Source: Limnochordia bacterium
GTDB lineage: Bacteria > Bacillota > Limnochordia > DTU080 > RSA5
NCBI GenBank assembly: GCA_041686855.1
Contig: JAWLDA010000006.1
Span: forward strand, 194,034-258,033
Length of the DNA stretch: 64,000 nucleotides
Reading direction: 5' to 3'
In this document: in pieces, positions 33,336 to 52,209 of the stretch
How positions within the stretch are numbered: position 1 is the stretch's first letter
How the letters are laid out: each line of letters opens with the position of its first letter
Made by a program: the position numbers and the translations under genes
The notes under the pieces: model-generated
The model's database searches: none
What the model saw: only the letters and a program-made list of their open reading frames with translations
Told to the model about the DNA's origin: nothing

Positions 33336-33388
33336 GCGAAACCAACGTCACTTGGATCAGTATAACTAGGGCAACGAGAGCATACGCA

Positions 33389-33420
33389 GGCGTCCAGGGA
33401 TTAGCCCCTGGACGCTTTTT
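33389..33420 (+). terminator. Rho-independent terminator
   Basis: GCGTCCAGGG-ATTAGC-CCCTGGACGC-TTTTT. Confidence 0.75.
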
Positions 33421-33604
33421 GCGTTGAGCGCGGCAGCGCCGCAAAGGAGTAGGGACCATTCTCCTGTAGGACTGGGCCCTTTGGGTAAAGCGCGTGAGGA
33501 ATGTCACATAAGTTGCGGAGTGCCAGCGCGGGATTGTTCTACCATGATGGGGAATCACGACCATTCCCCTATGGAAATTGGGGAAATAGGAGGCGAACCG
33601 ATTC

Positions 33605-35002
33605 ATGGTGTTTCACTTTCGTAATATCAGCGCGAGCGTCATAGTGTTGCTCGCCGCTCTCATTGTCGTTGCGGGAATTGCCCTGGCTGCGCCGGAGCCG
33701 CCCGTCATCACGCATGCCGGGGACGTTCAAGCGGAGATCCCTTTGGCTGTGCCGTTCGATCCCGTGGCGCCGCCCCGACCGCCACAGGGCGAGATTGTAC
33801 ACTTCACGTTGGAGGCGAAGCTCGCTCGTTTGGAAGTAGCTCCTGGCGAGTTTAAGGAAGTTTGGACGTTCAATGAATCAGTTCCTGGACCGACCCTCAG
33901 AGTGAATCAGGGGGACACGGTCCGCTTCACCCTCATCAACAAAGATCCCAACATGGAGCATGGACTTGACTTTCACGCAGGGCAGATGGATCCGGGCACG
34001 TATCACCGATCCATCCAGCCGGGTGAGAGCATCACCTTCGACTTTGTCGCTAGATATCCCGGGGTCTTCTTTTATCACTGTAGCGCCGATCCGGTGATCA
34101 TGCACATCGCCAACGGCATGTTCGGTGCAGTGATCGTCGATCCACCGGGATACGTGCCGACCGGCAAAGAGTATGTACTCGTCCAACACGAGTGGTACGA
34201 GGATCCGACCGATCTCGACCAACTTCTAAACGCTAACCCGGTCAGTTTGGCGTTCAACGGGGTCCCCTTCCAATACATGGACGCACCCTTGACTGCCGAG
34301 CCCGGTGAGCAGATTCGATTCTACGTGGTGAATGCCGGTCCCAATCGATTCTCTGCGTTCCATGTGATTGGCGGCATCTTTGACAAGGTACTGTTTGACG
34401 GGAATCCCGCAAACGCTCATTACGGTTCCCAAACGGTGACGGTACCGCCGGGGGGAGCGCTGGTTGCAGACCTCGTGGCCGACACTGGGACCTATCCTGT
34501 GTTGACTCACGCAATGAACGACGCCAACAAGGGTGCTCTGGGTCTGCTCCGAGTGGGAGAACCCGAGGTGTCGCATGGGGAGTCGACCGCTTCAAGCTCC
34601 CGACACGAGACGGCCACTCCCTCTACCGATGTGAGTGCCGCCCTTGACCCGTCCGCTGCAGGGACCCCGCCGTCGCCAAGCGATTCGGTTGCAACTGCGA
34701 CAGGCTCCGCGGGTGAGCAGGTGCTCATCTCGGGATACGCGTTTAAGCCCAAGCGGCTGACGATCAAAGTCGGCACGACGGTAACCTGGCTCAACCAGGA
34801 TCGAACGGGCCACGCAGTGGTTCACAAAATGTCTCATCCGTCGGAGCGTCTCTTTGACTCGACGGGTGAGAGAGACGGTGGCGAGAAGCGACTCTTTAAC
34901 CGAGGAGAAAGTTACAGTTTCACCTTTACCGAACCGGGCATTTACGAGTACACGTGTTCCCCGCACCCCTATATGAGCGGAACCATCATTGTGGAGGAGT
35001 GA
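33605..35002 (+). CDS. nirK: Copper-containing nitrite reductase with C-terminal cupredoxin domain
   Basis: Signal peptide; HGLDFHA (T1 His, catalytic Asp, T2 His), YHCSADPVIMHIANGM, SAFHVIGG (catalytic His), YPVLTH; Ser/Thr/Pro linker; cupredoxin GHAVVH...YTCSPHPYM. Confidence 0.85.
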   Translation: MVFHFRNISASVIVLLAALIVVAGIALAAPEPPVITHAGDVQAEIPLAVPFDPVAPPRPPQGEIVHFTLEAKLARLEVAPGEFKEVWTFNESVPGPTLRVNQGDTVRFTLINKDPNMEHGLDFHAGQMDPGTYHRSIQPGESITFDFVARYPGVFFYHCSADPVIMHIANGMFGAVIVDPPGYVPTGKEYVLVQHEWYEDPTDLDQLLNANPVSLAFNGVPFQYMDAPLTAEPGEQIRFYVVNAGPNRFSAFHVIGGIFDKVLFDGNPANAHYGSQTVTVPPGGALVADLVADTGTYPVLTHAMNDANKGALGLLRVGEPEVSHGESTASSSRHETATPSTDVSAALDPSAAGTPPSPSDSVATATGSAGEQVLISGYAFKPKRLTIKVGTTVTWLNQDRTGHAVVHKMSHPSERLFDSTGERDGGEKRLFNRGESYSFTFTEPGIYEYTCSPHPYMSGTIIVEE

Positions 35003-35008
35003 CCGCCC

Positions 35009-37141
35009 GTGTTGCGCATGCATCGTATGACAAGATTGGTCGTCGTGACGCTAGCGTGTATCGGACTCCTTATCACCCCGGTGTCGGCACATAAACTGCT
35101 CGAACCCGATTGGAGTATGGACGAACTGGTTCAAGAGGTACACGAAACCTTCCTTGGGGGAACAGTTCCCGCTGAGAAGATGACGGGGAACGTGCGTGAG
35201 TTTCACATGTACATCGCAGAGATCGAGCACGAAATCACCGAGGGCGTGACGGTGACAGCTTGGGCCTACGGCTTGGAAGGGGAAGAGGCGACTGTTCCAG
35301 GACCCACGCTTAGGGTTAAAAAAGGCGATCTCGTTCGTATTTACCTATCCAACCGGCACGACCAACCGCACTCCTTGCATCCCCATGGGATTACGACTGT
35401 GGATGTCCTCAACGACGGAGTGCCGCACACCTCGGGTGCCTACATCATGCCTGGTGAGACGCTCATGTACGAGTTTGTAGCTCAGGAGTCAGGCACGCAC
35501 GCCTATCACTGCCACGTGCAAACCTCAGTGCACCAGGATATGGGCATGTACGGCGGCCTCATCGTCGAAGAGGATGAGCCGGTCGTATGGGATCGGGAGT
35601 ATGTCGCTATCATCGATGAATGGGATACCCGGCGGGACCCTACCAACGCAGCCGAGATTCCAGAGTACAACTACTACGTCGTGAACGGCAAATCCGGCAC
35701 CTCGGTGCCCGACTTCCTCATCTTGGACGGTGAGGTGGGCCGAATTCGGCTGATCAACATGGGATTTCAGTCGCACGCCCTTCACTTGCACGGCACGGCG
35801 TTTGTCGTGACGCACAAAGACGGGTATCAACTGCCGGCGCCTTACCGAGGTGACACCATTAATATCGCCCCGGGGGAGACGTACGACGTCCTCGTTCAGG
35901 GAAGGGATGGAGTCTTCCCCTGGCATGACCACAACTCGCTGGCAGCGACAGACGACGGCGTCTACCCCGGTGGCATGCTGATGCATACCGTCGGATCCCC
36001 TGAAGTGCGCTTTAACCCGGCCTACGATCCACCTCGCTACGCCATTGAAGGTCACGTACACGACGGAGATGCAACACGCGCGCAATATGGCATCGTGGAT
36101 CTTGACGAGGAGGGGGCGTCAGACCACGAGCATGAGATGGAGGATCGTGGAACGACTCCACAACCGATCGAGGCGAGCAGCTCTGATGGGGAGACGGCCC
36201 TTATTTCGGAGACGTCGGGGCGCACAGCCCCGGCGGTTGCGAGGGTTCCTATGGCACCGATGGAGCCTCCGGAGATCGTAAAAGGCGCTGCGGATGTCAA
36301 GTCAGGTATCGGTCCGGCTCAACCCTTTGATCCAGTGGCACCATCGCCTACCATTCAAGGTGAAGTGGTCGAATTCACGCTGGAAGCCACACGGGCCACC
36401 CTTGAAGTGGCCCCTGGAGATGTCCGGGAGGTATGGACCTTTAACGGGTCGGTTCCAGGGCCGACGTTGCGCGTAAATCAAGGGGATACTGTTCGTTTCA
36501 CGCTCATCAATAAGGATCCCGAAATGGCGCACGGGCTCGACTTTCATGCTGGACAGATGGATCCTGGTATCTATCATCAAGCAATCGAGCCCGGCGAGAG
36601 CATCACGTTTGATTGGGTTGCCCGATATCCCGGGGTCTTCTATTACCATTGCAGTGCCGATCCAGTGATCATTCACATTGCTAATGGGATGTTCGGCACC
36701 GTGATCGTCGACCCGCCGGGGTATCAACCGGCCGACAAAGAGTACGTCCTCGTGCAGAATGAGTGGTATCGGTCAAACAACGATCTCGATGTGTTACTGG
36801 AGGAGAAACCTGTTGCTGCAGCGTTCAACGGAGTACCGGCGCAATACGTCGACAATCCACTGACGGCCGTTGCCGGTGAAAGCCTGCGCTTTTACGTCGT
36901 CAACGCAGGCCCGAGCGATTTCGCTGCCTTTCACGTCATTGGCGGGATCTTTGACAGAGTACTCTTTGATGGGAATCCGCGGAATCCACAGTTTGGCGTG
37001 CAAACCGTGACGGTACCCCCCGGTGGCGCCGTCGTAGCGGATATGATCGTGCCAGATCCGGGCGATTATCCGGTGTTGAGTCATCTGATGAGCTCAGCGA
37101 CGAAGGGGGCGCTGGGGATCCTACACGTCACCGGCGACTAG
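35009..37141 (+). CDS. Fusion of two-domain multicopper oxidase (type C) and copper nitrite reductase
   Basis: N-half HSLHPHG, YHCHVQTSVHQDMGM, HALHLHG, WHDH; His/acidic linker; C-half HGLDFHA, YHCSADPVIIHIANGM, AAFHVIGG, YPVLSH. Confidence 0.85.
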   Translation: MLRMHRMTRLVVVTLACIGLLITPVSAHKLLEPDWSMDELVQEVHETFLGGTVPAEKMTGNVREFHMYIAEIEHEITEGVTVTAWAYGLEGEEATVPGPTLRVKKGDLVRIYLSNRHDQPHSLHPHGITTVDVLNDGVPHTSGAYIMPGETLMYEFVAQESGTHAYHCHVQTSVHQDMGMYGGLIVEEDEPVVWDREYVAIIDEWDTRRDPTNAAEIPEYNYYVVNGKSGTSVPDFLILDGEVGRIRLINMGFQSHALHLHGTAFVVTHKDGYQLPAPYRGDTINIAPGETYDVLVQGRDGVFPWHDHNSLAATDDGVYPGGMLMHTVGSPEVRFNPAYDPPRYAIEGHVHDGDATRAQYGIVDLDEEGASDHEHEMEDRGTTPQPIEASSSDGETALISETSGRTAPAVARVPMAPMEPPEIVKGAADVKSGIGPAQPFDPVAPSPTIQGEVVEFTLEATRATLEVAPGDVREVWTFNGSVPGPTLRVNQGDTVRFTLINKDPEMAHGLDFHAGQMDPGIYHQAIEPGESITFDWVARYPGVFYYHCSADPVIIHIANGMFGTVIVDPPGYQPADKEYVLVQNEWYRSNNDLDVLLEEKPVAAAFNGVPAQYVDNPLTAVAGESLRFYVVNAGPSDFAAFHVIGGIFDRVLFDGNPRNPQFGVQTVTVPPGGAVVADMIVPDPGDYPVLSHLMSSATKGALGILHVTGD

Positions 37142-38077: not shown

Positions 38078-38107
38078 GTAGGGGAAAGCTGCATTCGAGA
38101 ATGAAGT

Positions 38108-38164
38108 TGGCGGAGGAGGAGGGATTCGAACCCTCGTCACCCGTTAGGGTGGCACGATTTCCAG
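38108..38164 (-). repeat. att site: 57-bp duplicate of the tRNA-Ser(GGA) 3' end
   Basis: TGGCGGAGGAGGAGGGATTCGAACCCTCGTCACCCGTTAGGGTGGCACGATTTCCAG is identical to 52210-52266. Confidence 0.95.
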
Positions 38165-38255
38165 GCACATGGAACGGGAACACAGTCCAAACAATCCACT
38201 ATATATAGGCTTTTGGCAGAATGTGTCTCTCCCGTTTAGTACGATTTTGGATTGG

Positions 38256-38280
38256 CATTGTAGTCAGGATTGTAGTCATT
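38256..38280. repeat. Candidate integrase arm-type sites (left)
   Basis: CATTGTAGTCA-GG-ATTGTAGTCATT; the same tandem occurs at 52151-52176. Confidence 0.7.
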
Positions 38281-38288
38281 TCCGAGCC

Positions 38289-39197
38289 CTATCTATTACC
38301 TCTCGAATTCTTTTGCCGACATGCGGGGCTGCATGTCCGCCTGTTTGGCCTTGAGTATCCCTGTCCCACTGGAAACCAGACATCGCACCCTTCTGTTTCG
38401 CAGATACGCCACTCAACCCCTCCTGTAACCACTTGCGCAAACTGTAGCCATATAGCACCTTTAAGGGACTTGACAAAGACTTTCATATGGAGGCTTGGCC
38501 CTCTCGTCGTTGCTCGCCCTCTTGGTGCGTATTCCGGGGAGTAATAGGTCTCGTTGAATAGCTCAGTGGATATCCTGTTTTCGAGTAGTGCAAGCGCTGC
38601 GCCGTAATAGTTCCCTTCACCGATGGCATTAAAGAGCCATGGCTGCGAGGGCTTTTGTATGGTTGAAAGGATTTCCACGGCAGTATACTGCTCCCCTGGT
38701 ACGTACACGATGCGGTCTCGAAGAGAAGGTATATCCATCGGTGGCTCCTCAGCAAACCGTTGTGCTTCATTGATCGCTTCCCAAATTCTCCAAGCGCCCC
38801 GCAAAAAATCGATCTGCGTCGCAAATTCATCAGCCCAGAACCCTTTACGACCCGTCCTTAGAGGATGATCAACGGATTCGAAAGTCCCGTATTGTGAGGC
38901 AAAATCGTACGCAGCGTCAATTGTTGGATTCAACTTTCGAAGACGGTGGAATAGATCAGGTGTTTCACTCAGTGGTTGATAAGTTCGGTCGATTATTTGT
39001 TCACAATGAATGAATATGCCGCTCTTCTCCGAGCGTGTGTCATTGTTAATATTCTCTGCTACGAAGCCTCCTTTAGGAATGAACCACTCAAAGGCAAAGC
39101 CTCCCTCAGTGGGTTGGATCGGCCTCATACCGTTGTCACTCCCTGCCGTCACAGAATTGATACGCAAAAAGTGTGGTTGGTCACATAAACATTGCAC
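38289..39197 (-). CDS. Hypothetical protein with C-terminal CGNR-like zinc finger
   Basis: RICETEGCDVWF...RPNRRTCSPACRQK; start uncertain. Confidence 0.7.
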   Translation of the reverse strand: MQCLCDQPHFLRINSVTAGSDNGMRPIQPTEGGFAFEWFIPKGGFVAENINNDTRSEKSGIFIHCEQIIDRTYQPLSETPDLFHRLRKLNPTIDAAYDFASQYGTFESVDHPLRTGRKGFWADEFATQIDFLRGAWRIWEAINEAQRFAEEPPMDIPSLRDRIVYVPGEQYTAVEILSTIQKPSQPWLFNAIGEGNYYGAALALLENRISTELFNETYYSPEYAPRGRATTRGPSLHMKVFVKSLKGAIWLQFAQVVTGGVEWRICETEGCDVWFPVGQGYSRPNRRTCSPACRQKNSRGNR

Positions 39198-39254
39198 TTA
39201 AAGTGTTCCATTCCTGGCGTGAGTGAACCAAAATAGGAGAAAACGTGATAGGGG

Positions 39255-39491
39255 GTGCCAACCGAGGTGAATACAGCGATAGACAGTCGGGTGGCGCAAA
39301 GTGCTGGGAGACGGTTGTTTACCGTATCGGAGGCCGCCAAGTACGGTGGATGGAGCACGAGCTTCGTTTACAAGGCTGTTGCGAGAGGAATCTTCCCTTC
39401 CGTTCGTATTGAAGGGACTCGGAGCGTGAGAATTGACCGGCAGGACCTCGACGCCCTTATCGAGCGCAATAAGGTCGGTAGCTTAGGGTAA
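39255..39491 (+). CDS. Excisionase-family HTH protein
   Basis: LFTVSEAAKYGGWSTSFVYKAVARGIFPSVRIEG...VRIDRQDLDALIE. Confidence 0.85.
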   Translation: MPTEVNTAIDSRVAQSAGRRLFTVSEAAKYGGWSTSFVYKAVARGIFPSVRIEGTRSVRIDRQDLDALIERNKVGSLG

Positions 39492-39540
39492 CGTCGCTAC
39501 AACACCCGATAGCAGGTCGGCATTCGGGAGGTGGTCGGAC

Positions 39541-39720
39541 TTGCAGTCATTGGACGGGAATGGCATGGCGAATGGATTCAGGACGAGTCCGAGAGTGACA
39601 TGGGAGGACCGCACAGCCTTCCCATTATCTGTGGATGCTGACTGGCTAGCGCCTCGCCTGTCGAAAGGTAAGGCGAAAGTGCGCCTCCGGCGTCATTGGA
39701 TATGGGGGCGGTTCGGGTGA
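39541..39720 (+). CDS. Small hypothetical protein (59 aa), coupled to the DUF3987 gene
   Basis: GGGAGGTG RBS before TTG 39541; its TGA overlaps GTG 39717 (GTGA). Confidence 0.45.
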   Translation: MQSLDGNGMANGFRTSPRVTWEDRTAFPLSVDADWLAPRLSKGKAKVRLRRHWIWGRFG

Positions 39721-41324
39721 GCAGTTTGCCCAAAGTTGACCTTCGTAAGTACAAGGCGTTAAGGGAAAATGGTGTACCCGATGACGAGGCCGAGCGCATT
39801 GTTATGGATGGAATCTGGCCGCCTCCCGTACCGTTTTATCAGGCCGAATTGCCATCCTTCCCTACACAAACTCTCCCCAAGTGGCAGCGAGACTTTGTAG
39901 AAGCGGAGGCGGAGGCGACGCAGACTCCGCCGGACCTCGCAGCCATGCAGACCCTGTGCGTCGTTGCCGCGGCTATTCAGCGAAAGGTGGTCGTACGCGT
40001 TCGGGAGGGGTGGACTGAGCCTGTCAACCTTTTTACCGTGGTTGTACAGGAGTCCGGTACACGAAAGAGCCGGGTTACCAAGGATACAACGGCTCCGGTG
40101 GAAGATTGGGAAGAACGAGAAGGAAGCTACATTGAGCCTGCAATCCACGAGGCGTCCAATGCTTATCGAATCAAGGAAACGCGGTTGCAACGGCTACAAC
40201 GCCAAGCTGCACAGGCCGATGAGGTCAGGGATCAACGGCGACTTGCTGACGAGGCATTGGACTTGGCTTGGGAACTTGCCGAGTTGGAGATTCCTGTTCC
40301 CCCTCGAATAATAGCCGACGATACGACGCCTGAAAAGCTGCAAACGCTAATTCGAGACCACGAAGGCCGGATGGCTGTAGTGTCGCCTGAGGGTGATGTC
40401 TTCGACATAATGTCGGGACGGTATTCCACCACTGGTGAGTCCAATTTCGGGGTTTATCTCAAAGGGCATGCGGGTGATACCTTGCGAGTGGATCGAGTGG
40501 GTCGCCCGCCCGAGTATGTCCGCAATCCCGCGTTGACGGTGTCCTTGGCAATCCAGCCGGAAGTGCTACGGGGACTGCATAGTAAGTCCGGTTTTCGCGG
40601 GAGGGGATTGTTGGCACGGTTTCTCTATTCCCTGCCACCCAGTTTGGTGGGAAAGCGGAAGATTGATGCCCCGCCGGTACCTCGAACGATACGCACCACG
40701 TACGAGACGTACGTTGATGAACTCCTATCACTTCCATGGACGACCGGTAGTGAGGGAGAGAAGATTGCCCACGAACTCCATTTTTCTGACGGGGCTCGGG
40801 TACGTTTTTTGGAGTTCATGAAACGACTAGAGCCGGCACTTGCTCGCACCGGTGAACTTGGCACCATTGCTGACTGGGGCGGGAAATTAGCCGGTACGGT
40901 GGCTCGAATCGCCGGATTGTTGCACGTGGGCAATCAGGTTATGGCATCCATGCGGTGGGAAGCACCCATTGGCCAGGAGGTCGTGGAACGTGCCATCATC
41001 ATCGGTGAAAAGTATCTTATTCCACATGCTAAGGCCGCTTTCGGGGAGATGGGTGCGGACCCTTCGGTCGATGACGCCCGCTACATCCTTGAGATTATCT
41101 CCGAAAAGATCTTGGAGGGATTTAAGAAGCAAGATATGTGGCAACTAACCAAAGGGCGATTCAAAAAGGTTGAGGGTCTTAATGAGGGACTAAGGCTATT
41201 AGTCGAGCATGGATACCTACGGGAGAACGTCCCAGAAACGGAGCCCGGTAGACGTGGACGAAAACCTGCACCGACTTACGACGTGAATCCGTTGCTGTGG
41301 TCCTACAATTCCTACGATTCCTAA
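39717..41324 (+). CDS. DUF3987/YfjI family protein (putative element replication protein)
   Basis: EPVNLFTVVVQESGTRKS P-loop-like motif, DDTTPEKL, SPEGD, VDRVGR, IQP, GRGLLARFL, C-terminal wHTH-like region; ORF track start is 39696. Confidence 0.8.
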   Translation: MSSLPKVDLRKYKALRENGVPDDEAERIVMDGIWPPPVPFYQAELPSFPTQTLPKWQRDFVEAEAEATQTPPDLAAMQTLCVVAAAIQRKVVVRVREGWTEPVNLFTVVVQESGTRKSRVTKDTTAPVEDWEEREGSYIEPAIHEASNAYRIKETRLQRLQRQAAQADEVRDQRRLADEALDLAWELAELEIPVPPRIIADDTTPEKLQTLIRDHEGRMAVVSPEGDVFDIMSGRYSTTGESNFGVYLKGHAGDTLRVDRVGRPPEYVRNPALTVSLAIQPEVLRGLHSKSGFRGRGLLARFLYSLPPSLVGKRKIDAPPVPRTIRTTYETYVDELLSLPWTTGSEGEKIAHELHFSDGARVRFLEFMKRLEPALARTGELGTIADWGGKLAGTVARIAGLLHVGNQVMASMRWEAPIGQEVVERAIIIGEKYLIPHAKAAFGEMGADPSVDDARYILEIISEKILEGFKKQDMWQLTKGRFKKVEGLNEGLRLLVEHGYLRENVPETEPGRRGRKPAPTYDVNPLLWSYNSYDS

Positions 41325-41387
41325 GGTCGAATGAGGTCGGACGGCGCGTCGGTATTCGCTAATATAGGGAAATTAGGAATTGCAGGA
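41301..41387. repeat. Iteron-like inverted repeat (candidate replication origin)
   Basis: TCCTACAATTCCTACGATTCCTA (41301-41323) inverted against TAGGGAAATTAGGAATTGCAGGA (41365-41387); 18/23 match with 9-nt periodic CCTA units. Confidence 0.6.
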
Positions 41388-41739
41388 TGAAGCAGGTTTT
41401 TGTAGTTTCGACACGGAGCGTGAGGTGGTTTCAGTGGCATACAGCAAGAAGGCGAGAATGGTTCGACAATGCATGGGGCGACGGGCCGATGGGCGACGAT
41501 GCCGAGCCTGGGCGGTCTGGGACGACTCAAAACAACTCTGTGTGGCCCATCTGGGCCGACACCACCGTGGTCCAATGCCTCCGCGGTGGGCAAGCCGTCC
41601 GAGGCGACGGCGGGCAAAGGCTGTGCCTTGCACGTGTCGGGCGTACGCTTGGCCGCATCGTCCCGGAGGTGGACTGTGCAAGTGGCCGGATCCGCCCCAT
41701 TACCGTTGTACAACCCCGGCTGGAACGAGGCGAGAGTGA
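41380..41739 (+). CDS. Small basic Cys/His-rich protein (HGGxSTG-like zinc-binding)
   Basis: CMGRRADGRRCRAWAVWDDSKQLCVAH and CTCRAYAWPHRPGGGLC; true start probably downstream of 41380. Confidence 0.55.
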   Translation: MQDEAGFCSFDTEREVVSVAYSKKARMVRQCMGRRADGRRCRAWAVWDDSKQLCVAHLGRHHRGPMPPRWASRPRRRRAKAVPCTCRAYAWPHRPGGGLCKWPDPPHYRCTTPAGTRRE

Positions 41740-41874
41740 CTGTTGTGACTTGTGTGAGAAGGAAAGCAACAGCTTGTTCTTGCCGGACACCGTCAGGGAG
41801 AGATCGAGATCAGTGGTAAATCGGTCCAATCCTAGAACGCCCAAACGTTTCTCACCTGTCAATAGCTATCAGGT

Positions 41875-42480
41875 GTGAGTTATGCGACAAAGCGATTGAT
41901 CGGGAGACACGAGTTTCGTGAGGTAGCATCTCTCTCAAGGGGCATGAACGAAATGGAGGACTGCATTTTGATGAAAACGGAGAGGGCAGACGTTGAAGAA
42001 AATCAGACCTTGATTGAGCAGGCGCAGGCGGCGTACCGCAAGGCAGCAGAGCAAGAGCGGGAGATAAAGGGGCGGTTGTGCGAGACGTTCGCTGAGCTGG
42101 ACGCTAAAGCCTCGAAGATTAAGGCCGTACAGAGAGAGATCCTCACGAGTGACTTCGATAAAGCGGTCGTATCCCAAGCGGATGTTGAATGGCTTGAGCG
42201 CGAGCACAAGGTTTTGACTCAGCACCGTATTGCACGAGAAAAGGAACTGAAAGAGGCCGAAGCCAAGACACGGGCGGCAAAGGCTGAGATTGAACGGCTG
42301 CGCCATCGGGCGTACAATCTGCGGACAATTATTATTCCGAAGCAGAGTGGCGTCGTGGAGGCGAAGGAACGGGACGTATGTGAGGCTGAGAGGGCGCTCT
42401 CGAATTTTCGGATGGCGCTTGCCGAGTCTCGTCGTGTGACCGAGGATCTGGAGGGCGAACTACGTATGATTGGTGATTAA
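41875..42480 (+). CDS. Coiled-coil hypothetical protein
   Basis: E/K/R/A-rich heptad-like composition throughout. Confidence 0.65.
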   Translation: MSYATKRLIGRHEFREVASLSRGMNEMEDCILMKTERADVEENQTLIEQAQAAYRKAAEQEREIKGRLCETFAELDAKASKIKAVQREILTSDFDKAVVSQADVEWLEREHKVLTQHRIAREKELKEAEAKTRAAKAEIERLRHRAYNLRTIIIPKQSGVVEAKERDVCEAERALSNFRMALAESRRVTEDLEGELRMIGD

Positions 42481-42715
42481 CTTGGTGGGACGGCGCTTGG
42501 GATCGTGGAAAGGGATCGCGTTATGCACCTTAATCCGCCCTTCGCAGGGTCGGTCCATTTGATTCCGTACTCCCCTATCGAAGTGCCTGCTAAAGATGGT
42601 GATTATGACAATATAGTTCCGTTTTCGTGTTAAGGGGAAGGGGATCGCTACGGTCGGGCAGAAATCCGCAAATAGAGTTCCGAGAATATGCAGAAGCGGA
42701 ACAATAGCATTTGGA

Positions 42716-43315
42716 GTGATATTGATGGCTAAGACCCGACGAAAGAAACTGCCGAAGACCTTAACCACTGAAGAGCGCCTTGCGTTGCTGGCCGCACCGA
42801 ACGCGAAGTGCCCAACCGGCCTTCGAAATCTCTGCATGTTGCACCTCATGGCAAACTGCGGTTTGAGAGTCGCCGAGGTGATTGGATTAAAGGTGCACCA
42901 AATCGACTGGCAGAGTGGCAGGATTATGGTGCACGGCAAAGGGGCAAAGGACCGGGTCGTCTGGATGAACGAGGGGACATTGGAGTTGATTCGCTCTTGG
43001 CGTGAAAAGCGTCCGCATCCATCTGGCGAGCTATTTACGACCATGAAGGGTGACCCGGTGAGCGATCGCTACGTGCGTTACATGGTCAAGCGGATGGGGA
43101 CGCGGGCTGGGATCGAGAAGGGTGACGACGGCGTACACCCGCATATGCTGCGCCATACGGCCGCGACAGACCTATACAGGGAGACAAAAAACATCCGGTT
43201 GGTCCAAAAATTCCTCGGCCACGCCGACCTTTCGACCACAATGGTTTACACCGAAATCGTCGACGACGAGTTGGAAGATGCGTTGCGGAATTTCAGACGG
43301 AATGAGGCGGTTTAA
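42716..43315 (+). CDS. Small tyrosine recombinase (catalytic domain only, ~200 aa)
   Basis: GLRVAE, KGAKDR, HPHMLRH, LGHADLSTTMVY. Confidence 0.9.
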   Translation: MILMAKTRRKKLPKTLTTEERLALLAAPNAKCPTGLRNLCMLHLMANCGLRVAEVIGLKVHQIDWQSGRIMVHGKGAKDRVVWMNEGTLELIRSWREKRPHPSGELFTTMKGDPVSDRYVRYMVKRMGTRAGIEKGDDGVHPHMLRHTAATDLYRETKNIRLVQKFLGHADLSTTMVYTEIVDDELEDALRNFRRNEAV

Positions 43316-43581
43316 ACTCTGGTGACCGAGCGCCGTCTGACGGGACATTGATTTGAAGACTGACAGCGTCATTTTATCATTGAATTCCTCTGGCTGTGGT
43401 GACCTTGGGGTTTATCGCCTTTACGTTTTCGGCGGCTCCTCTACCTATCGGTCAAAGACGGGTTTCGTTAAACACGTACCAAGCGGGTGCCCCTTCCGTG
43501 AATGGTGCAAAGGAGGCTGGTATTCCCCCGGGGAAAGACGTAAAATCATCGGTGCCCGTTACGATATGGAGGGCCGGACGT

Positions 43582-43917
43582 TTGAAAGCGAAGTTGTTAT
43601 GGGTTCTCATTGCAATCGTGTTGGGCATTACCGGGTTATCTGTCGTAGATGATCCGGTGTTGCTCGATCTCCCTGAGCGGATATTGCCCCTTGATAGCCT
43701 GGATCAGATTGACGAAATACGGGCGAGGGTAGATAGCAGCAGCTATGAATCCGCCCATCAGGCCAGGATGATTGCTTCTTTTTTCTACGGGCCTGAGATT
43801 CCCCTTACGGAGTGGGTTCTGCGAACCGATCGAGTACCTTCGAACACCGGCTGGCGAATGACCTTCCTCATCAGCCGTTACAATAGCAAGTACAAAGACC
43901 TGGGCGCGATCCTCTAA
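43582..43917 (+). CDS. Hypothetical exported/membrane-anchored protein
   Basis: GGAGG RBS before TTG 43582; N-terminal KLLWVLIAIVLGITGLSVV. Confidence 0.5.
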   Translation: MKAKLLWVLIAIVLGITGLSVVDDPVLLDLPERILPLDSLDQIDEIRARVDSSSYESAHQARMIASFFYGPEIPLTEWVLRTDRVPSNTGWRMTFLISRYNSKYKDLGAIL

Positions 43918-43980
43918 TTCATCGAGCCAGTGGGGGTACCTCTTGTTCCCCCACCGATGTCGTCAAAGGAGGCGCCATAG

Positions 43981-44139
43981 GTGCTGGAAAATATTACTGT
44001 GGGCGCAATGTTTGTCGGATTTTTGATATTTGCGGTCTGGGCCTTGCGGGTTGGAGAAAAGCAAGCGCAAAAAGATGCCGAAGAAGCCAGAACACAGCGT
44101 GAGGCCAGACAGGACTCTAAAGGCAACAAAAAGAATTAG
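43981..44139 (+). CDS. Small single-TM protein (52 aa) with charged tail
   Basis: AAGGAGG RBS, GTG start; MLENITVGAMFVGFLIFAVWALRVGEKQAQKDAEEARTQREARQDSKGNKKN (below the ORF track cutoff). Confidence 0.55.
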   Translation: MLENITVGAMFVGFLIFAVWALRVGEKQAQKDAEEARTQREARQDSKGNKKN

Positions 44140-44371
44140 GCCGATGGACACCGCCTGGAGACTCGTTCTCGTGGCGGTTTTCCTTTTCAGGTAAACGGGG
44201 TATGCTCCGTCGGGGTGGCGCGATGAATGTCCCCATACCCCTTCCTCCATAGAAATAGATGGCACTTCAGGTCTACGTGATTTGGCGGCGAATATATGTT
44301 AGGATGGGCGCACAAGAAGGCGTTTCGACTCGGCAGTGCCATGGACGTCTCTTCGAACAGGGGGAAAGGCG

Positions 44372-44584
44372 ATGCCAAGGGTTTTGCTTGGATGGGGAAT
44401 AGGTATAGCGGTCGCCCGTATCCTGGTCATCTACCATTACTATGTGACAGGAATTAAGCTCATTCCTGAGGCCCTCCTCGTCTTCGGGTTTATCGTGCAG
44501 ACGATTCTTATTGCAATAGGCGGAGGACTCATTGGCGCGCAACGCATGAAGCGAAAGCAGAAGGTCAACCTTAGTAGGATTTGA
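44372..44584 (+). CDS. Small two-TM membrane protein
   Basis: Two hydrophobic segments and a basic C-terminus. Confidence 0.45.
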   Translation: MPRVLLGWGIGIAVARILVIYHYYVTGIKLIPEALLVFGFIVQTILIAIGGGLIGAQRMKRKQKVNLSRI

Positions 44585-44593
44585 TGGGGCAAA

Positions 44594-44878
44594 ATGAGCG
44601 GACATCAACCTAAAGATATTCGTGTCGCATACTTGGTTTTACTTTTTCTGGGGTTGGTAGGCGGACACCACTTTTACCTCGGGAATCTGGTCCGTGGTGT
44701 CTTACACCTCCTAATTGGCATGACTGGCCTCGTCCTATTTGTGTACGGATTTGTTCCCGCGACGGGTGGTGGTGAACTGAAGCCATACGTGGCGATTTTC
44801 GGGTTCATCACTTTGTGTGCGTCCGGGGGACTAATGGTCTGGGATGCCATCATGCTTTCCAGCAGAATACCGCGGTAA
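44594..44878 (+). CDS. TM2/NINE domain membrane protein
   Basis: KDIRVAYLVLLFLGLVGGHHFYLG signature. Confidence 0.75.
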   Translation: MSGHQPKDIRVAYLVLLFLGLVGGHHFYLGNLVRGVLHLLIGMTGLVLFVYGFVPATGGGELKPYVAIFGFITLCASGGLMVWDAIMLSSRIPR

Positions 44879-44990
44879 CAACGTGCGTGGGTGAACCGTA
44901 GATGGCCGAGGCCATGCGGCGTAAAGCCATCGAGGCACTGACCTCGGAGAATTGCTTCAAGAAATGTGATGGTCTAAGGATCCACTGCTT

Positions 44991-45335
44991 TTACTGCTGG
45001 AGAAGGTGCGCGATACCGACGACCTTTTTAAGTTCGACCACAAAGCCGATACCGTGCCCCGGCCTATCGAGGCCAACCTTCTGACGGATAGCCTCGAGGA
45101 CCTCGTCTGTCTTCTCCTGGGGCGTGATGGTCAGCACAATATCTTTGGCCGGTTCGACGGGTATCCCCAAGATCTTGGCCTTCTCGTGGATTCCGATGCC
45201 TCTTCCCAACACGCAGGTTCCACCCTCAGCTCCAGCTTCGCGTGACGCGGAAATAACGTCTTCTGCGCCACCGCGATTCACGATAGTCACGATCAAATCA
45301 AACTCCTGGCTCTGTGGATTCTTGGGATTCTCCAC
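44991..45335 (-). CDS. PII-like signal transduction protein
   Basis: AGAEGGTCVLGRGIG, VEPAKDIVL, PGHGIGFV; GGGAGG RBS before GTG 45335. Confidence 0.85.
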   Translation of the reverse strand: MENPKNPQSQEFDLIVTIVNRGGAEDVISASREAGAEGGTCVLGRGIGIHEKAKILGIPVEPAKDIVLTITPQEKTDEVLEAIRQKVGLDRPGHGIGFVVELKKVVGIAHLLQQ

Positions 45336-46065
45336 TTGAGGCCCTCCCTTTGCGAGCGTAAAACACGCCGACTGCCAGCACACATAGTATTGGCGCTAAC
45401 GCAACCAATGAAACGAGACCAAAACCGTGGAGTAGTGGATCGCGGCCTGGGAACGCCGAAGCCGCCCCCAGACCAAGTGCCACGATGAAGGTGACGGTCA
45501 TTGGCCCTGTTGCAGCGCCGCCTGCATCGAACGCGATGGCGACGAAATCAGCGCGGGCGTAGCGTATTGTCAACAGAGCAATTGTATACCCCGGCACCAG
45601 AATGGTCCACAACGGTATCCCGACAATCGTTCGCACAATCGCCAGAGCCACCGAAAGTCCGACACCAAAGGCCAAGGTCCACAAGAGTAGGCTTGTGGGT
45701 ATCGCGCCTGCTGATGTTTCGTACACTTCGTCGTTCAAAAGACGAACCGCTGGTTCCGCGACGGTTGCCATAAAACCGAGCACAAACCCTATAGGGACCA
45801 ACCACCACGGCGATGAGCTCGTGGTCAACGTACGGCCCAGCTCCTCGCCGACGGGGAGGAACGCGACGTGGACACCCTGCAAGAATAGGAGGAGTCCTAC
45901 CGCGCCCAGTCCAAAGCCTGTGAGAAGGCGGCTAAACTCCCGCGCGCTCATGCGCAGAAAAAGCAGTTGGCAGATCACAAGAATCGCCACGAGCGGCCCG
46001 ATCGCAGCGGCCACTTCGAAAAGCACATCGTCCATCCCATGAAAGAGTCCATGTATGATCTCCAT
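45298..46065 (-). CDS. DUF1538 family membrane protein
   Basis: TVAEPAV, IAFDAGGAATGPMTVTFI, GFGLVSL. Confidence 0.85.
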   Translation of the reverse strand: MEIIHGLFHGMDDVLFEVAAAIGPLVAILVICQLLFLRMSAREFSRLLTGFGLGAVGLLLFLQGVHVAFLPVGEELGRTLTTSSSPWWLVPIGFVLGFMATVAEPAVRLLNDEVYETSAGAIPTSLLLWTLAFGVGLSVALAIVRTIVGIPLWTILVPGYTIALLTIRYARADFVAIAFDAGGAATGPMTVTFIVALGLGAASAFPGRDPLLHGFGLVSLVALAPILCVLAVGVFYARKGRASSGESQESTEPGV

Positions 46066-46066
46066 A

Positions 46067-46768
46067 TTATCCGCCGCTCCCTAGCAAAAGCCCAAGCAGC
46101 AATACGGCAGCCACAGGTCCAATCGAAGCGAGAGCCACGATGCCAAAAGAGTCGCTGACACCGTCCCGCTTTCCCAGAACGGATGCCACACCGACATTAA
46201 AGGCCAGAATGAAAGGGACAGTAAGTGGGCCGGTCGTCACACCACCCGAGTCAAACGCGACAGCCAAGTATTCGGGCCGTGCAAGAAAGGCGAGGAGAAA
46301 CAAGAGGAGGTAGCTGGGAACGAGGAACGTCACGAGGCGTGCCTGTAAGGCGGTCCTGAGGAGGCTTAAGCCGACAAAGAGAGCCACCCCTATCGCGATC
46401 GCGAGGATGAGTGAACCCGGAGGGAAAAACCCTGGTGATACCAGGTCCACCTGCCGCGCCATCACTCTCACGTCAGGCTCTGCTATCGTGATGGCAAAGC
46501 CGAGAATGACACCGAACCCAAGGAGTAGGGCAACCGACCCGAATTGTGGCATTTTACCTCCGAGTCGTTCACCGAATGGCAAAATCCCCAGGCGGGCACC
46601 AACCAAGAACAAGACCAGACCAATGATGGCCATTATACTGCCAAGCAACACGAGAGCGATGCTCGTTGCATCGGAATCGAGCAGAGTAAGTTTCAGCACC
46701 ACGATCATACCCACAATGGGTGCCGTAGATTTAACGACCTCGAAAAACGACTCGCGCCAGTGTCCCAT
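46067..46768 (-). CDS. DUF1538 family membrane protein
   Basis: TIAEPDV, VAFDSGGVTTGPLTVPFI, SFGIVALASIGP. Confidence 0.85.
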   Translation of the reverse strand: MGHWRESFFEVVKSTAPIVGMIVVLKLTLLDSDATSIALVLLGSIMAIIGLVLFLVGARLGILPFGERLGGKMPQFGSVALLLGFGVILGFAITIAEPDVRVMARQVDLVSPGFFPPGSLILAIAIGVALFVGLSLLRTALQARLVTFLVPSYLLLFLLAFLARPEYLAVAFDSGGVTTGPLTVPFILAFNVGVASVLGKRDGVSDSFGIVALASIGPVAAVLLLGLLLGSGG

Positions 46769-47023
46769 GGTTCAAATATATTCTTCAGGGCGTGTTTGAT
46801 CCCTTGAGGCCAGTTGGGTATCGAGAAAATGTCTAGAACTGCTCGACTTGTTGGAAAGTGAGCCGGATTCTTACCCCGGTGAAATATGGTGGGAGCACTC
46901 GGGTACTCGCGGCTGTATTGATGTGTTATAATGCGGTGGTTCGTTCTTTAACGTGGCCGAATCATGCCTTGTTTTCATTAAATGGTAAACACTTATTCGA
47001 AAAAGACAGGAGGTGAGGTGTAT

Positions 47024-48211
47024 ATGGATTCGATTACGTCAGTGCTTGATTTCTTTGCACACCTGGGATTTGATCTCCGCCAAGGACTTTCGGCACAGTG
47101 GTTGGGCATCACGTTGTGGCAATACCTGTTAGCCTTCATCTTGATCATACTCGCCCTTTTCGCCCGTCGGATGGCGACTCTCTTCTTAAACCGCTTCGTG
47201 CTGCCGTGGACCAGTCGATTAGGGGGTATCTATACAGGCCGGATCATCAGCGCCTTGGTGCAGCCCCTCTCCGCACTCTTAGGGTTGTTTGGCATTTTCT
47301 TGGCGATTAAAGTGCTGACGTTCCCCCTGGACGGTGCCCCGGAGGCGGTGGTTTCGCCAGAGCTGGTGAATCAAAGCTTTCAAGTCGCGATTGCGGGTAT
47401 CGTGGTCTGGGCGCTTACCCGCCTTATCGACGTACTAGGACTGTTTTTGCGTGAACGTGCGGAGGAAAACGACCTTCCGGTAGATGTTCCCGTCATCCCC
47501 TTACTCCAAAAGTCGCTTAAGATTTTCGTGGCCGTCGTCGGCGGGCTCCTCGTCATTCAACACATGGGGTATCCCATTGCAAGCCTCCTAGGAGGTCTGG
47601 GTATCGGTGGGTTGGCCGTCGCTTTAGCGGCGCAGGACACCTTGGCCAACGTTTTTGGTTCCATTATTGTATTTACGGACAAGCCCTTTAAGGTTGGCGA
47701 TTGGGTGGAGATCGGCGATGTCGAAGGGTTTGTGGAATCGATTGGTTTCCGTTCAACCCGAATCCGTACCTGGGCGAAGTCGTTGGTCACACTTCCAAAT
47801 AAGACGATCGCCAATAGCCGAATAGAAAATTGGTCAGCAATGCCATTGAGGCGGGTGAGCTATACCCTGTGCGTCGCCTATGAGGCCTCTTCAGAGCAGG
47901 TGAAACAACTTGTAGATAAGATTGAACAGGCCGTGACCCACCACCCTGGAGTCGATCAGACGTTCCATTTGGTAAGCTTTAAAGGCTTTGGGGAAAGTGG
48001 ACTTGAGATCATGCTCTATTACTTTACGCGTTCCACGGCGTGGACGGAGCACATGCGAGTACGTCAAGAAGTGAACCTTGAGATCATGCAGTTGTTAGAC
48101 GAACTCGGTCTATCCGTGGCGGTGCCGAGTCGAAGGATTTATTTTTCTCCTTCCGGCAACGAACTGAGAATGGCCAACGTCGAGTTCAATCAGGGACGCA
48201 AAGACGCGTAA
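47024..48211 (+). CDS. MscS-family mechanosensitive channel
   Basis: SLLGGLGIGGLAVALAAQDTLAN, DKPFKVGDWV, IGFRSTRIRT, IENWS. Confidence 0.9.
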   Translation: MDSITSVLDFFAHLGFDLRQGLSAQWLGITLWQYLLAFILIILALFARRMATLFLNRFVLPWTSRLGGIYTGRIISALVQPLSALLGLFGIFLAIKVLTFPLDGAPEAVVSPELVNQSFQVAIAGIVVWALTRLIDVLGLFLRERAEENDLPVDVPVIPLLQKSLKIFVAVVGGLLVIQHMGYPIASLLGGLGIGGLAVALAAQDTLANVFGSIIVFTDKPFKVGDWVEIGDVEGFVESIGFRSTRIRTWAKSLVTLPNKTIANSRIENWSAMPLRRVSYTLCVAYEASSEQVKQLVDKIEQAVTHHPGVDQTFHLVSFKGFGESGLEIMLYYFTRSTAWTEHMRVRQEVNLEIMQLLDELGLSVAVPSRRIYFSPSGNELRMANVEFNQGRKDA

Positions 48212-48360
48212 AGGGGGTGGTGTCCGGTGAGCGTGTAGAGAAGGTGGTACTAGGTCTTTGAACTACGGAGACGTGCTGTAACGTTGTGTCGGGAGAATTC
48301 GGAATTCGGCGTGCAAATTCTAGCAGTATGGGAAGTTTATAACAAAAGGAGAGTGTGTCC

Positions 48361-49899
48361 ATGGAAACATACGTCGATGTCGCCCAATCGCTTTGGAACA
48401 CCGTCGTAACGCAGCTGCCATCCATTCTGTTGGCCGTCCTTGTCCTCTTCGTCGGGTGGGTGATCGCCCGCTACTTTTCCCGAGTCATTGGCCGGTTGGT
48501 CTTCAAACTTACTCATAACCCTCAGGTCCAAGAACTTGTCGAGGATCAGGGCCGTTATCGGGTCGACCAAGTTGCCGCGCGGGTTGCGTATTATGTGCTG
48601 ATGGTCTTCGTCCTGGTGCAGTTCTTCGACATCCTCGGGGTAACCGCCGTAACAGGGCCTTTCCTTTCGGTGGCCAACGAATTCGCCCTGGCAGTTCCCA
48701 ACTTGGTCAAGACGGTGCTTATTCTCCTTTCCGCGTGGGTATTGGCGACGCTGCTGCGCGGGATTGCTGTTCGGGCACTGGCATCTCAACCGGTGGGCCG
48801 GATTTTGGAACGGTTAGACGTCGTCGAAGGCGAGTCGGGGCGCGCTGCACTGATTAAAACGGCCGGGAACGTCGTCTATTATCTCGTGCTTGTCATGTTC
48901 CTGCCTGCCGTCTTTGGCGCTTTACAACTGGAAGGACTACAGGGTCCGTTTGAACAGGTGGTCGCGCAAGGTCTTGGATTTCTACCGAGGCTGGTCGCCG
49001 CCTCCATCACGGTGCTTGTCGGGTACATTGCCGCCAGGATCGTGAAGGGCATTGTAACCCAGCTCTTCGCCAATGTGGGCGTGGATCAACTTCCAGGTAA
49101 GGTCGGCATGGGACAGGTCTTTCAGTCCGTTCCGCTTTCCCGCTCGCTCGGAACGATCGCTTTTGTACTGGTCTTTCTACCGATCGTGATTTCCGGTTTG
49201 GAGTCCCTGGGGGTTGAAGCGATCTCAGGACCGGCCATCAGCATGCTCACCGTGGTATTGAACATGGTGCCCAATGTGGCCGTGGCGGTATTGCTTTTCG
49301 CAGCAGGCGTGGCCCTGGCCCGTTGGGTCGGCCAATTCACGGCCTCACTCTTGGAAAACGTCAACTTGGTCGGGTTCCTCGCCAAATGGGGCCTGCTTCG
49401 AAATGAGAAAACCGAACCGACCGTATACTCGGTGGTGGGCAAAGCGGTCACCGGGATCATTGTGCTGTTGGTCCTGGTTGAGGTCTTCGAAGTGTTGCGC
49501 CTGGTGGAACTGAGCAACATCCTGGGGAGCATCCTCGCGTACTTGCCTCATGTGGTTATGGCCGTCGCTATTCTCGCGGTGGGTTATGCCGTGAGCCAGT
49601 TCACCAATCGCAGCCTACGTTCGGTGTTGGAGCAGACTCCGTACCCCGATTGGTTGAGCGGTGTCGCCCGGTACGCTGTACTGGTTCTGGCGACTATGAT
49701 GGCCTTAGAACAACTCGGTGTGGCTAGGTCGATTGTGGTGAATGCCTTTACCATTCTGCTAGGATCGTTGGGGCTGGCAGCTGCCATTGCCATTGGGCTG
49801 GGCGGTAAAGATGCGGTCCAAAGGTGGCTAGATGAAAATACATCCGCTAAGACGCAGGGCGAGCCTGGGGATGCAGAAGATGGTGACATGACGGCGTAG
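48361..49899 (+). CDS. Conserved TM-helix repeat membrane protein (CmpX-like)
   Basis: Repeated units (LPSILLAVLVL, VPNLV, LPRLVAA, VPNVAVA, LPHVVMA); C-terminal AAAIAIGLGGKD. Confidence 0.75.
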   Translation: METYVDVAQSLWNTVVTQLPSILLAVLVLFVGWVIARYFSRVIGRLVFKLTHNPQVQELVEDQGRYRVDQVAARVAYYVLMVFVLVQFFDILGVTAVTGPFLSVANEFALAVPNLVKTVLILLSAWVLATLLRGIAVRALASQPVGRILERLDVVEGESGRAALIKTAGNVVYYLVLVMFLPAVFGALQLEGLQGPFEQVVAQGLGFLPRLVAASITVLVGYIAARIVKGIVTQLFANVGVDQLPGKVGMGQVFQSVPLSRSLGTIAFVLVFLPIVISGLESLGVEAISGPAISMLTVVLNMVPNVAVAVLLFAAGVALARWVGQFTASLLENVNLVGFLAKWGLLRNEKTEPTVYSVVGKAVTGIIVLLVLVEVFEVLRLVELSNILGSILAYLPHVVMAVAILAVGYAVSQFTNRSLRSVLEQTPYPDWLSGVARYAVLVLATMMALEQLGVARSIVVNAFTILLGSLGLAAAIAIGLGGKDAVQRWLDENTSAKTQGEPGDAEDGDMTA

Positions 49900-50052
49900 A
49901 TTGAAGCCGAGATCTTGCCGAAGTCCTGCCGGTGAATGGGTTGAAAAGGTATGTGAAACGACGCGAAACCATAGTTCTCCAGTCCTTTGAAACGTGTACT
50001 GTATGGGGCTTTCCGTGAATCGGTGTGTCTAGCTGCGAAAGCTACGTCGCAA

Positions 50053-50097
50053 CTACGGATCAGAAAGCCAGGAGTTCGAATCTTCGCGCGCGCACCA
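50053..50097 (+). pseudogene. Remnant 3' half of tRNA-Arg(ACG)
   Basis: CTACGGATCAGAAAGCCAGGAGTTCGAATCTTCGCGCGCGCACCA: anticodon loop CTACGGA, T-loop GTTCGAAT, CCA end; no D-arm or 5' half; hairpin ACCCGCA...TGCGGGT follows. Confidence 0.7.
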
Positions 50098-50640
50098 CTC
50101 AAGACCCGCATTGCCATTGGCTTTGCGGGTTTTGGGTTTGTATGGACTTTGCATCGTGAGGTGCCACTCCAAACAGCAAAGCAGAGAAAAGCACGTCCCG
50201 ACCGGACGCCAGTGGCATCGAGGCTTTACGTGCTCGGGTTCAAGATCTTACGGACCAAAACGCCAGGGTTTTCGGTGCGAGTGGCATAATTGAAACCTGC
50301 TTCAGAAGATGGGGGCGAAATGACTGTCGCCCGTGGCGCAACGTCCAACAGGGCATTTAACGGAAACGAAGCGGATAGTTGCGAAGGCCCACGGAGTCTT
50401 AAAGATGATGCCCCCCCGACAACCAGTGCCTCAAATGGTTCGAGCCACGGCTGATGCCCCCTTGCACCGAGAATGACGGTTTTAGGATCTCCCGTTCTTT
50501 TGAACCGAAGCTCCTGTGGAAACGCCTAAACTAAATGAAGTGAGGCAGATAACCGCCTCCCTCTCAGCATCGCTCGCGCTTGGGCCAAATATCCCTCAAT
50601 AGGTAAAGGCTGATGGTAATTGTGGGTTTGATGGGCCAGG

Positions 50641-50662
50641 GCATACATGTTAACATGTATGC
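50641..50662. promoter_or_regulatory. Perfect 22-bp palindrome, candidate operator of the RHH-integrase operon
   Basis: GCATACATGTTAACATGTATGC abutting the AAAGGAGG RBS. Confidence 0.7.
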
Positions 50663-50678
50663 AAAGGAGGAAGGCGAG

Positions 50679-50840
50679 GTGAAGAAAGAAGTGATGCTCG
50701 CCGTGCGGGTTCCGGAGGATATGCGACGGGCCATCAAGGCCATGGCCGCACAGGAGGGTACAACAGTACAGATTCTGGTCCGTGAGGCAATATCAGATCT
50801 GCTTAAACATCACAAGAGTGGAGGGAACAACGGTGGCTAA
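50679..50840 (+). CDS. Ribbon-helix-helix (CopG/Arc-like) regulator
   Basis: VMLAVRVPEDMRRAIKAMAAQEGTTVQILVREAISDLL; stop overlaps the integrase start. Confidence 0.75.
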   Translation: MKKEVMLAVRVPEDMRRAIKAMAAQEGTTVQILVREAISDLLKHHKSGGNNGG

Positions 50841-52053: not shown

Positions 52054-52085
52054 GCAACGTCTTCACAACTAAGAGCGTCACCCTC

Positions 52086-52116
52086 GCGCCGGAGCTGCAA
52101 CTCCGGCGCTTTCTTT
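52086..52116 (+). terminator. Terminator after the integrase
   Basis: GCGCCGGAG-CTGCAA-CTCCGGCGC-TTTCTTT. Confidence 0.7.
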
Positions 52117-52150
52117 GTCGCTCGCACCTGTTGCGAGAGACTCGTGAGCG

Positions 52151-52176: not shown

Positions 52177-52209
52177 CGACTTGTCGTTGCGCTACAAAAC
52201 GCTTGAAAC

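Follow-up and report, generated by a model that had tools for sequence, protein, structure and literature searches.

Why would a bacterium build a complete copper oxidase and a complete copper nitrite reductase into one polypeptide? The question is raised by a single gene at positions 35009-37141 of the DNA analyzed here, a 64,000-nucleotide stretch from a Limnochordia bacterium (GenBank assembly GCA_041686855.1, contig JAWLDA010000006.1, positions 194,034 to 258,033), which we call the window. An earlier note on this DNA, made from its letters alone, had described the product as a two-domain multicopper oxidase (2dMCO) of type C joined to the copper nitrite reductase NirK. Judged from sequence comparison, this 2dMCO-NirK fusion is a real and conserved architecture, and from the same comparison we infer its function. 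The protein is very probably exported and carries four cupredoxin domains, a type-C 2dMCO first and a complete NirK after it. The anatomy given in the earlier note holds at the level of sequence; the family to which the protein belongs, the partner gene beside it, and the precedent of an anammox 2dMCO-HAO protein had been overlooked.

Is this truly one protein? Translation of the window gives an uninterrupted open reading frame on the plus strand (as are the partner gene and the signals described below), with a GTG start, 710 residues, no internal stop, and a stop codon at 37139-37141. The two modules within it are each matched by profiles and by solved relatives, with hits well outside the range of chance. 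The motifs listed in the earlier note, from the signal peptide to the NirK catalytic residues, were all recovered when the translation was checked against the coordinates. Reading of the translation predicts a Sec-type signal peptide at residues 1 to 27 (35009-35089), ending in VSA, with neither a twin-arginine motif nor a lipobox.

The oxidase module begins with domain 1 at 35171-35593 (about residues 55 to 195), which aligns to PHTIHWHG and YHCHV of the solved oxidase 3g5w. Its predicted type 1 copper (T1) ligands are H121, C168, H175, and M180, and it contributes H124, H126, H167, and H169 to the trinuclear cluster; the corresponding motifs are HSLHPH at 35369-35386 and HCHVQTSVHQDMGM at 35507-35548. 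Domain 2 (35594-36043, about residues 196 to 345) supplies the cluster histidines H259, H261, H306, and H308, from HALHLH at 35774-35791 and HDH at 35924-35932. The latter motif has no cysteine, with D307 at the position of the T1 cysteine, and domain 2 thus lacks a T1 site. Four HxH-type motifs with eight histidines, and a T1 site confined to domain 1, place the module in the class that Nakamura and Go reportedly named type C in 2005. Pfam finds Cu-oxidase_3 (3.2e-42), Cu-oxidase_2 (1.8e-31), and Cu-oxidase (1.7e-16) over residues 81 to 297. Against the PDB, residues 94 to 335 match the two-domain oxidases 3g5w (1e-41, the best) and 2zwn (9e-40), and all four copper motifs align with these solved oxidases residue for residue. 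3g5w is reportedly the multicopper oxidase encoded by the nitrifier gene ncgA.

A linker of residues 346 to 440 (36044-36328) follows. It starts with an invariant E347-G348-x-x-H351, within the letters IEGHVHDGD read from 36044, continues through a low-complexity stretch rich in acidic residues, His, Pro, and Ser (DHEHEMED further on), and ends in a conserved N-terminal arm of the NirK module.

The NirK module itself occupies residues 441 to 710 (36329-37138), as delimited by profile, PDB match, and family alignment. Its T1 ligands are H508, C548, H556, and M561, and its type 2 copper (T2) ligands are H513, H547, and H692; the third T2 histidine, encoded at 37082-37084, would be supplied by the neighboring subunit. 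The catalytic residues are D511, H642, and I644; in NirK the first two are the catalytic Asp and His, and the third is an Ile that gives the substrate pocket its shape. The motifs stand at 36530-36547 (HGLDFH), 36647-36691 (HCSADPVIIHIANGM), and 36929-36943 (FHVIG). A Pfam cupredoxin signal covers residues 486 to 567. All T1 and T2 ligands and all three catalytic residues are thus present, and the NCBIfam NirK profile TIGR02376 matches residues 451 to 710 at 1.6e-69, with a score of 234.7 bits that falls short of the curated cut-off of 296.3. The best solved matches, to residues 456 to 708 at 1e-63 and with ligands and catalytic residues aligned, are the Gram-positive-type nitrite reductases 3wia, 3wkq, and 3x1e. 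These are presumably Geobacillus NirK; they consist of the two NirK domains and have no oxidase attached. A copper load of about six per chain is predicted from these ligand sets.

Does the design exist elsewhere? A protein search over 5.8 billion clusters scored 7999 candidates, and among the best 120 of these were 26 other full-length fusions (P0002 to P0027, 671 to 793 residues). With the window's own protein and an N-terminally truncated member, P0028, the family comprises at least 28 clusters at 90% identity, 27 of them full length; the 27 further clusters come from separate assemblies. The other full-length members are 53 to 66% identical to the query over 95 to 100% of its length, except for P0012, whose best local alignment covers 46% of the query and which nevertheless has both motif sets. 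A search with the junction alone (residues 300 to 520) recovered the fused clusters of the full search and no new ones. The junction was covered completely in 27 proteins (the window protein, 25 other full-length members, and P0028) and by half in P0012. Named members come from two Symbiobacteriaceae metagenome-assembled genomes (MAGs), one Paenibacillaceae MAG, and Ferviditalea candida (WP_371756131.1), a species that has been isolated in culture and whose name is validly published. When clustering is relaxed to 50% identity, a single representative among 1.84 billion stands for the whole family. The ESM Atlas held no large cluster of the fusion's size and no model, and none of 582 matching plasmid records covered at least 80% of the protein. 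The fusion design is rare but recurrent.

Alignment of the 27 full-length members shows how it has been kept. Every one of them has the same residue at each of the 22 ligand or catalytic positions. Mean pairwise identity is 72.7% for the oxidase module and 70.0% for the NirK module; invariant sites and two equally conserved modules argue that neither half is decaying. The linker averages 33.6% identity and varies from 40 to 134 residues, the shortest spanning 40 to 47 residues from H351 to the NirK arm. Its start, EGx[IVL]H, opens a C-terminal tail common to the oxidases of the fusion clade and is found in 27 of 27 fusions, in all four stand-alone relatives of the oxidase described below, and in 2 of 39 oxidases of the sister clade. 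After it comes, in 14 of the 27 fusions and in all four of those stand-alone relatives, a conserved insert of about 60 residues (GDPxF...NSxxW..., alignment columns about 400 to 500) with no Pfam match; the window protein lacks the insert and has its acidic, His-rich, low-complexity stretch in that place.

The fusion does not stand alone in its genome. Gene 1, at 33605-35002, encodes a 465-residue NirK with a C-terminal cupredoxin (Pfam Copper-bind, residues 378 to 464, 1.8e-21, encoded at about 34712-34999). It scores 176.2 bits with TIGR02376, again below the cut-off, and is 72% identical to residues 409 to 707 of the fusion. Across the partner family (n = 26), the 13 ligand positions are kept in all 26 members, except for the cupredoxin Met, which is kept in 25. 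The stop codon of gene 1 (35000-35002) lies 6 nt before the GTG of the fusion gene, and a Shine-Dalgarno sequence, GGAGGAG (34993-34999), precedes that GTG by 9 nt and thereby falls inside the closing part of gene 1. By this layout, the two genes are translationally coupled. Ahead of the pair, after the upstream SIMPL gene, a terminator-like hairpin at 33388-33417, recognized by consensus match only, has a 12-pair stem with 8 G-C pairs and a T-run; its position implies that the cassette has a promoter of its own in 33420-33600. This presumed promoter region also contains a perfect palindrome, GGGGAAT-N7-ATTCCCC (33549-33569), whose exact core is unique in the genome. It gives no evidence of a regulon: of 11 genome sites with one mismatch (4 for the control) none is beside other N-oxide genes, and homologous loci do not have it.

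The order of the cassette, nirK-cupredoxin followed by 2dMCO-nirK on the same strand, is the same in the window and in all three full-length loci retrieved from species genomes (L001 to L003), and the matching of longest contigs would put 12 fusion clusters on the same contig as a NirK-cupredoxin cluster. In a tree of NirK modules, those of the fusions and of their partners group together (100/100), and the other NirKs fall outside this clade. The window's two modules pair with each other and with the modules of the closest relative (support 91/92). That they do not sort by gene type hints that the tandem NirK modules have undergone gene conversion or re-duplication locally. At the DNA level, 33785-34084 and 36356-36655, within the two modules, are 71% identical over 300 nt.

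What kind of organism carries the cassette? The window genome (4.27 Mb, 29 contigs, 98.95% complete) has two stand-alone NirKs above the curated cut-off (353 and 343 bits), a Sec-type clade II NosZ (895 bits), and five heme-copper oxidase genes, one of them in a 798-residue frame and a candidate qNOR. These N-oxide and heme-copper oxidase genes are on contigs C2, C9, and C5. No NarG in the genome exceeded the cut-off. By gene content, the organism looks like a partial denitrifier starting from nitrite. Each of the three other cassette genomes also has a further NirK-type gene; a NosZ search there gave no match, with the control also without one. The additional NirKs indicate that the cassette is accessory.

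The genes flanking the cassette in the window are ordinary ones and encode CoaBC, peptidases, a HemQ-like protein, a dehydrogenase, and SIMPL and YetF proteins. In the nearest genomes the flanking YetF gene is at most 41% identical, too distant to reveal an insertion. Just downstream lies a 14.1-kb integrated island (38102-52266), with a 63-nt direct repeat at its ends (38102-38164 and 52204-52266, 97% identical) that is a copy of the end of tRNA-Ser(gga), itself at 52210-52299. Its genes include a phage-type integrase (50782-52053) and a DUF3987 protein (39696-41324), and GC content in the window falls to about 0.50 at 37.5 to 39.5 kb. The idea that the cassette is part of this mobile island was rejected, since the left repeat is at 38102 and the cassette is outside it. 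At the Paenibacillaceae MAG locus (L003, 10132-11981 plus flanks), the cassette is followed by two copper genes, one encoding a protein with a CopC domain and the other a DUF1775 (YcnI-like) protein, and is flanked by a phage-type integrase and an IS1595 transposase.

How does the fusion compare with systems already described? The earlier note knew of no characterized enzyme of this architecture, and in the literature searched, including passages of surveys of NirK and of denitrification in Bacillota, we likewise found no description of a 2dMCO-NirK fusion; the supplements of these surveys (PMC10999283 for the NirK phylogeny) may list domain features. Tethered NirKs are the obvious relatives, being NirK cores with a redox module, as the fusion is: 2dv6 has an N-terminal cupredoxin, 3ziy and 2zoo have a C-terminal cytochrome c, and 6hbe, from Thermus scotoductus, has a C-terminal cupredoxin. 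The NirK module of the fusion matches the tethered chains at 1e-45 to 1e-50, and gene 1 of the cassette belongs to the type with a C-terminal cupredoxin. Review passages on tethered NirK name cupredoxin or cytochrome c tethers only. In contrast to these, the tether of the fusion is a complete two-domain oxidase, predicted to hold four coppers and placed N-terminal to NirK; a single-center carrier is what gene 1 has, not the fusion, although the fusion would operate in a related manner.

Another relative is the ncgABC-nirK cluster of nitrifiers (Nitrosomonas europaea and Nitrobacter winogradskyi), which likewise links nirK to the gene of an oxidase whose T1 is in domain 1. In that cluster oxidase and NirK have a gene each, and two cytochrome c genes go with them, whereas here they are fused, no cytochrome gene is adjacent, and a nirK-cupredoxin paralogue comes first. 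Published work ties the ncg genes to tolerance of nitrite and NO, and the role of the ncg-nirK operon is said to have "not been fully elucidated." The earlier note had placed such an oxidase, as a separate gene, in the nirK cluster of Nitrosomonas; the genetic linkage is consistent with these sources.

The nearest architectural analogue is the anammox protein BpMHAO (kuste2479). As described, it has a signal peptide, an N-terminal 2dMCO, a C-terminal trimeric N-oxide enzyme, and a modeled trimer, all as in the fusion or expected of it; its oxidase, however, has the T1 site in the C-terminal domain, which makes it type B, and the partner module is an octaheme HAO-like one, as against type C and a copper NirK here. 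A further comparison is offered by the archaeal MCO4 Nmar_1354 (9cck), a trimeric 2dMCO with a C-terminal T1 domain, which is reported to convert NH2OH to HNO with O2 and to hold its tethered cupredoxin T1 13.5 Å from the oxidase T1. It matches the N-terminal module of the fusion at 4e-26 only. Its architecture is that of the sister clade of our oxidase modules, and where it has a cupredoxin at the C-terminal position the fusion has a whole NirK.

That sister clade emerged from a quick tree of oxidase modules, which split into two clades (SH-aLRT 100). One contains the 27 fusions and four nested stand-alone oxidases, from Paenibacillus spp. and Deinococcus yavapaiensis. The other contains 39 oxidases with a C-terminal cupredoxin, together with the window genome's own paralogue, a 498-residue 2dMCO with a C-terminal cupredoxin (L017, 664-2160 on the minus strand, contig C3) that is 56% identical to residues 50 to 346 of the fusion. 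In Paenibacillus, an SLH-domain protein ending in a cupredoxin is encoded before the stand-alone oxidase. From the arrangements seen in both clades, the oxidase always travels with a T1 cupredoxin or a NirK.

Other combinations turned up among the more distant hits. The metagenome protein P0141 (836 residues) combines three parts in one chain: a 2dMCO with HxxHxH and HCH, a cupredoxin, and a module resembling NirK in which every ligand motif is present. At 28 to 37% identity to the query, it appears to be an independent fusion of the same three parts. P0164, P0200, P0125, P0188, P0214, and P0168 have other long NirK architectures, among them proteins of about 690 to 940 residues in which an N-terminal extension that has no annotation leads into a cupredoxin and then a NirK at the C terminus, another with a CtaA/COX15 domain before cupredoxin-NirK, and another with a C-terminal cytochrome c.

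What might the fused enzyme do? In both parent families a catalytic site is built between subunits: the trinuclear cluster of 2dMCOs and the T2 site of NirK each form between neighboring subunits of a trimer. With both sites built at interfaces, the fusion is expected to be a homotrimer of two three-fold rings, which at about six coppers per chain should hold about 18 per trimer. The reading we favor, and hold tentatively, is a dual-acceptor enzyme in which electrons go either to nitrite or to O2. We imagine that electrons would enter at the T1 centers, possibly by way of the cupredoxin of the partner NirK-cupredoxin protein. The NirK T2 site would reduce nitrite to NO; the oxidase cluster would reduce O2 to water and form the downhill sink whenever O2 is present. 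In air, the oxidase ring might thereby shut down the formation of NO and keep O2 from reacting at the T2 site of NirK. NirK can reduce O2 to H2O2, according to one report (PMC5755574). The T1 centers would serve as the wiring, and the NirK T1 domain, by its position, may play the part of the C-terminal cupredoxin of the sister clade. One can envision a facultative aerobe that has ordinary NirKs as well and bears the fusion on its cell surface as an accessory, O2-tolerant module for nitrite and NO.

Several findings weigh against this reading, at least in its strong form. A linker so long and so little conserved argues against a fixed interface between the two rings, and the four stand-alone oxidases nested among the fusions imply that the oxidase has no need of a fused NirK. 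The score of the NirK module below the profile's cut-off, together with these two points, counts against a tightly coupled machine, as does the neighborhood: a domain scan of the neighboring genes found no gene for cytochrome c or another donor adjoining the cassette. The fusion was found in none of 40 related genomes searched, and its role is therefore not readable from phylogenetic co-occurrence. Finally, multicopper oxidases usually oxidize a substrate and are not respiratory O2 sinks, which favors the rival readings.

The boldest such reading, which we consider unlikely, is that the fusion is self-sufficient in oxidizing NO (or NH2OH), its NirK working backward and no external redox partner being needed. 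NO, to nitrite, or NH2OH would be oxidized at the T2 site, and electrons would pass through the NirK T1 and the oxidase T1 to the trinuclear cluster, where O2 would be reduced to water. This would account for the tethering of a whole O2-reducing catalytic module rather than a mere carrier domain, for the absence of a donor gene nearby, and for the separate NirKs in the cassette genomes. The chemistry has precedents in the literature: NirK is able to oxidize NO to nitrite, and reversed NirK has been proposed as a candidate for the missing NO oxidoreductase of nitrifiers; an archaeal NirK oxidizes NH2OH to NO; an archaeal 2dMCO-cupredoxin oxidizes NH2OH and reduces O2 in a coupled reaction; and the nitrifier ncg genes are believed to remove the NO that NirK produces, nirK being harmful in ncgABC mutants. 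However, gene 1 of the cassette resembles a NirK of the usual reductive kind that carries its donor domain on a tether, genes of nitrification were not seen (no search aimed at them was made), electron transfer between the T1 sites is hypothetical, and the linker is variable. The reverse reaction of NirK is also slow.

The same variability of the linker would suit two independent enzymes on one chain, for which fusion would provide equal amounts, co-export, and co-localization with no exchange of electrons. Stand-alone oxidases inside the fusion clade and the separate gene products of nitrifiers are in keeping with this arrangement, which we nonetheless regard as rather improbable: the fusion has kept the same module order across 28 clusters, the sister clade has an electron-carrier domain at the same position, and the shortest linkers would keep the rings close.

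Multicopper oxidases are substrate oxidases, and the oxidase might instead be the point of electron entry. Its T1 would then take electrons from a substrate outside the protein, be it a metal ion, a phenolic compound, or NH2OH, and they would be passed to nitrite via NirK when O2 is scarce. The protein is predicted to be exported, and domains of cell-wall type occur in its relatives, with PF07833 in 4 of the 27 fusion-family proteins and SLH on the Paenibacillus partner cupredoxin protein; the CopC and YcnI-like copper genes after the cassette at one locus also fit. We find this proposal distinctly improbable, given that flow from the oxidase T1 to the NirK T1 would usually be uphill at typical potentials. 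The label of "manganese oxidase" on related proteins is an automatic annotation.

That two adjacent genes were wrongly joined in assembly or annotation, or that the gene is a decaying pseudogene, is scarcely credible: the 27 further uninterrupted fusion clusters come from other assemblies and include a cultured isolate, all ligands are invariant, and, of ten public read pieces (51 to 202 nt) placed on the stretch, nine match with 0 or 1 differences and one short partial match has 5, with no indels. In favor of an artifact, none of the pieces spans 36091-36314, in the linker. Those pieces come from public data in which four metagenome runs contained 5 to 8% of the sampled words and no RNA runs were listed.

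What, then, does the fusion tell us? Here the tether of a NirK is a second catalytic center, predicted to reduce O2, and this would bring the chemistry of nitrite, NO, and O2 together on one polypeptide. By a Rosetta-stone argument, the fusion points to the two-domain oxidase and NirK as functional partners, a link that has been suspected in the ncgA-nirK operon of nitrifiers. With one member in the cultured Ferviditalea candida, the enzyme is open to study without a metagenome. It offers a direct test of an O2-driven, oxidative NirK, and so bears on the NO oxidoreductase still being sought in ammonia oxidizers. If the reading as an NO oxidase were true, the fusion would be the first enzyme shown to act as a partner-free copper NO:O2 (or NH2OH:O2) oxidoreductase, and it would provide a working model for the missing NO-oxidizing step of nitrifiers, in which a similar oxidase gene stands beside nirK.

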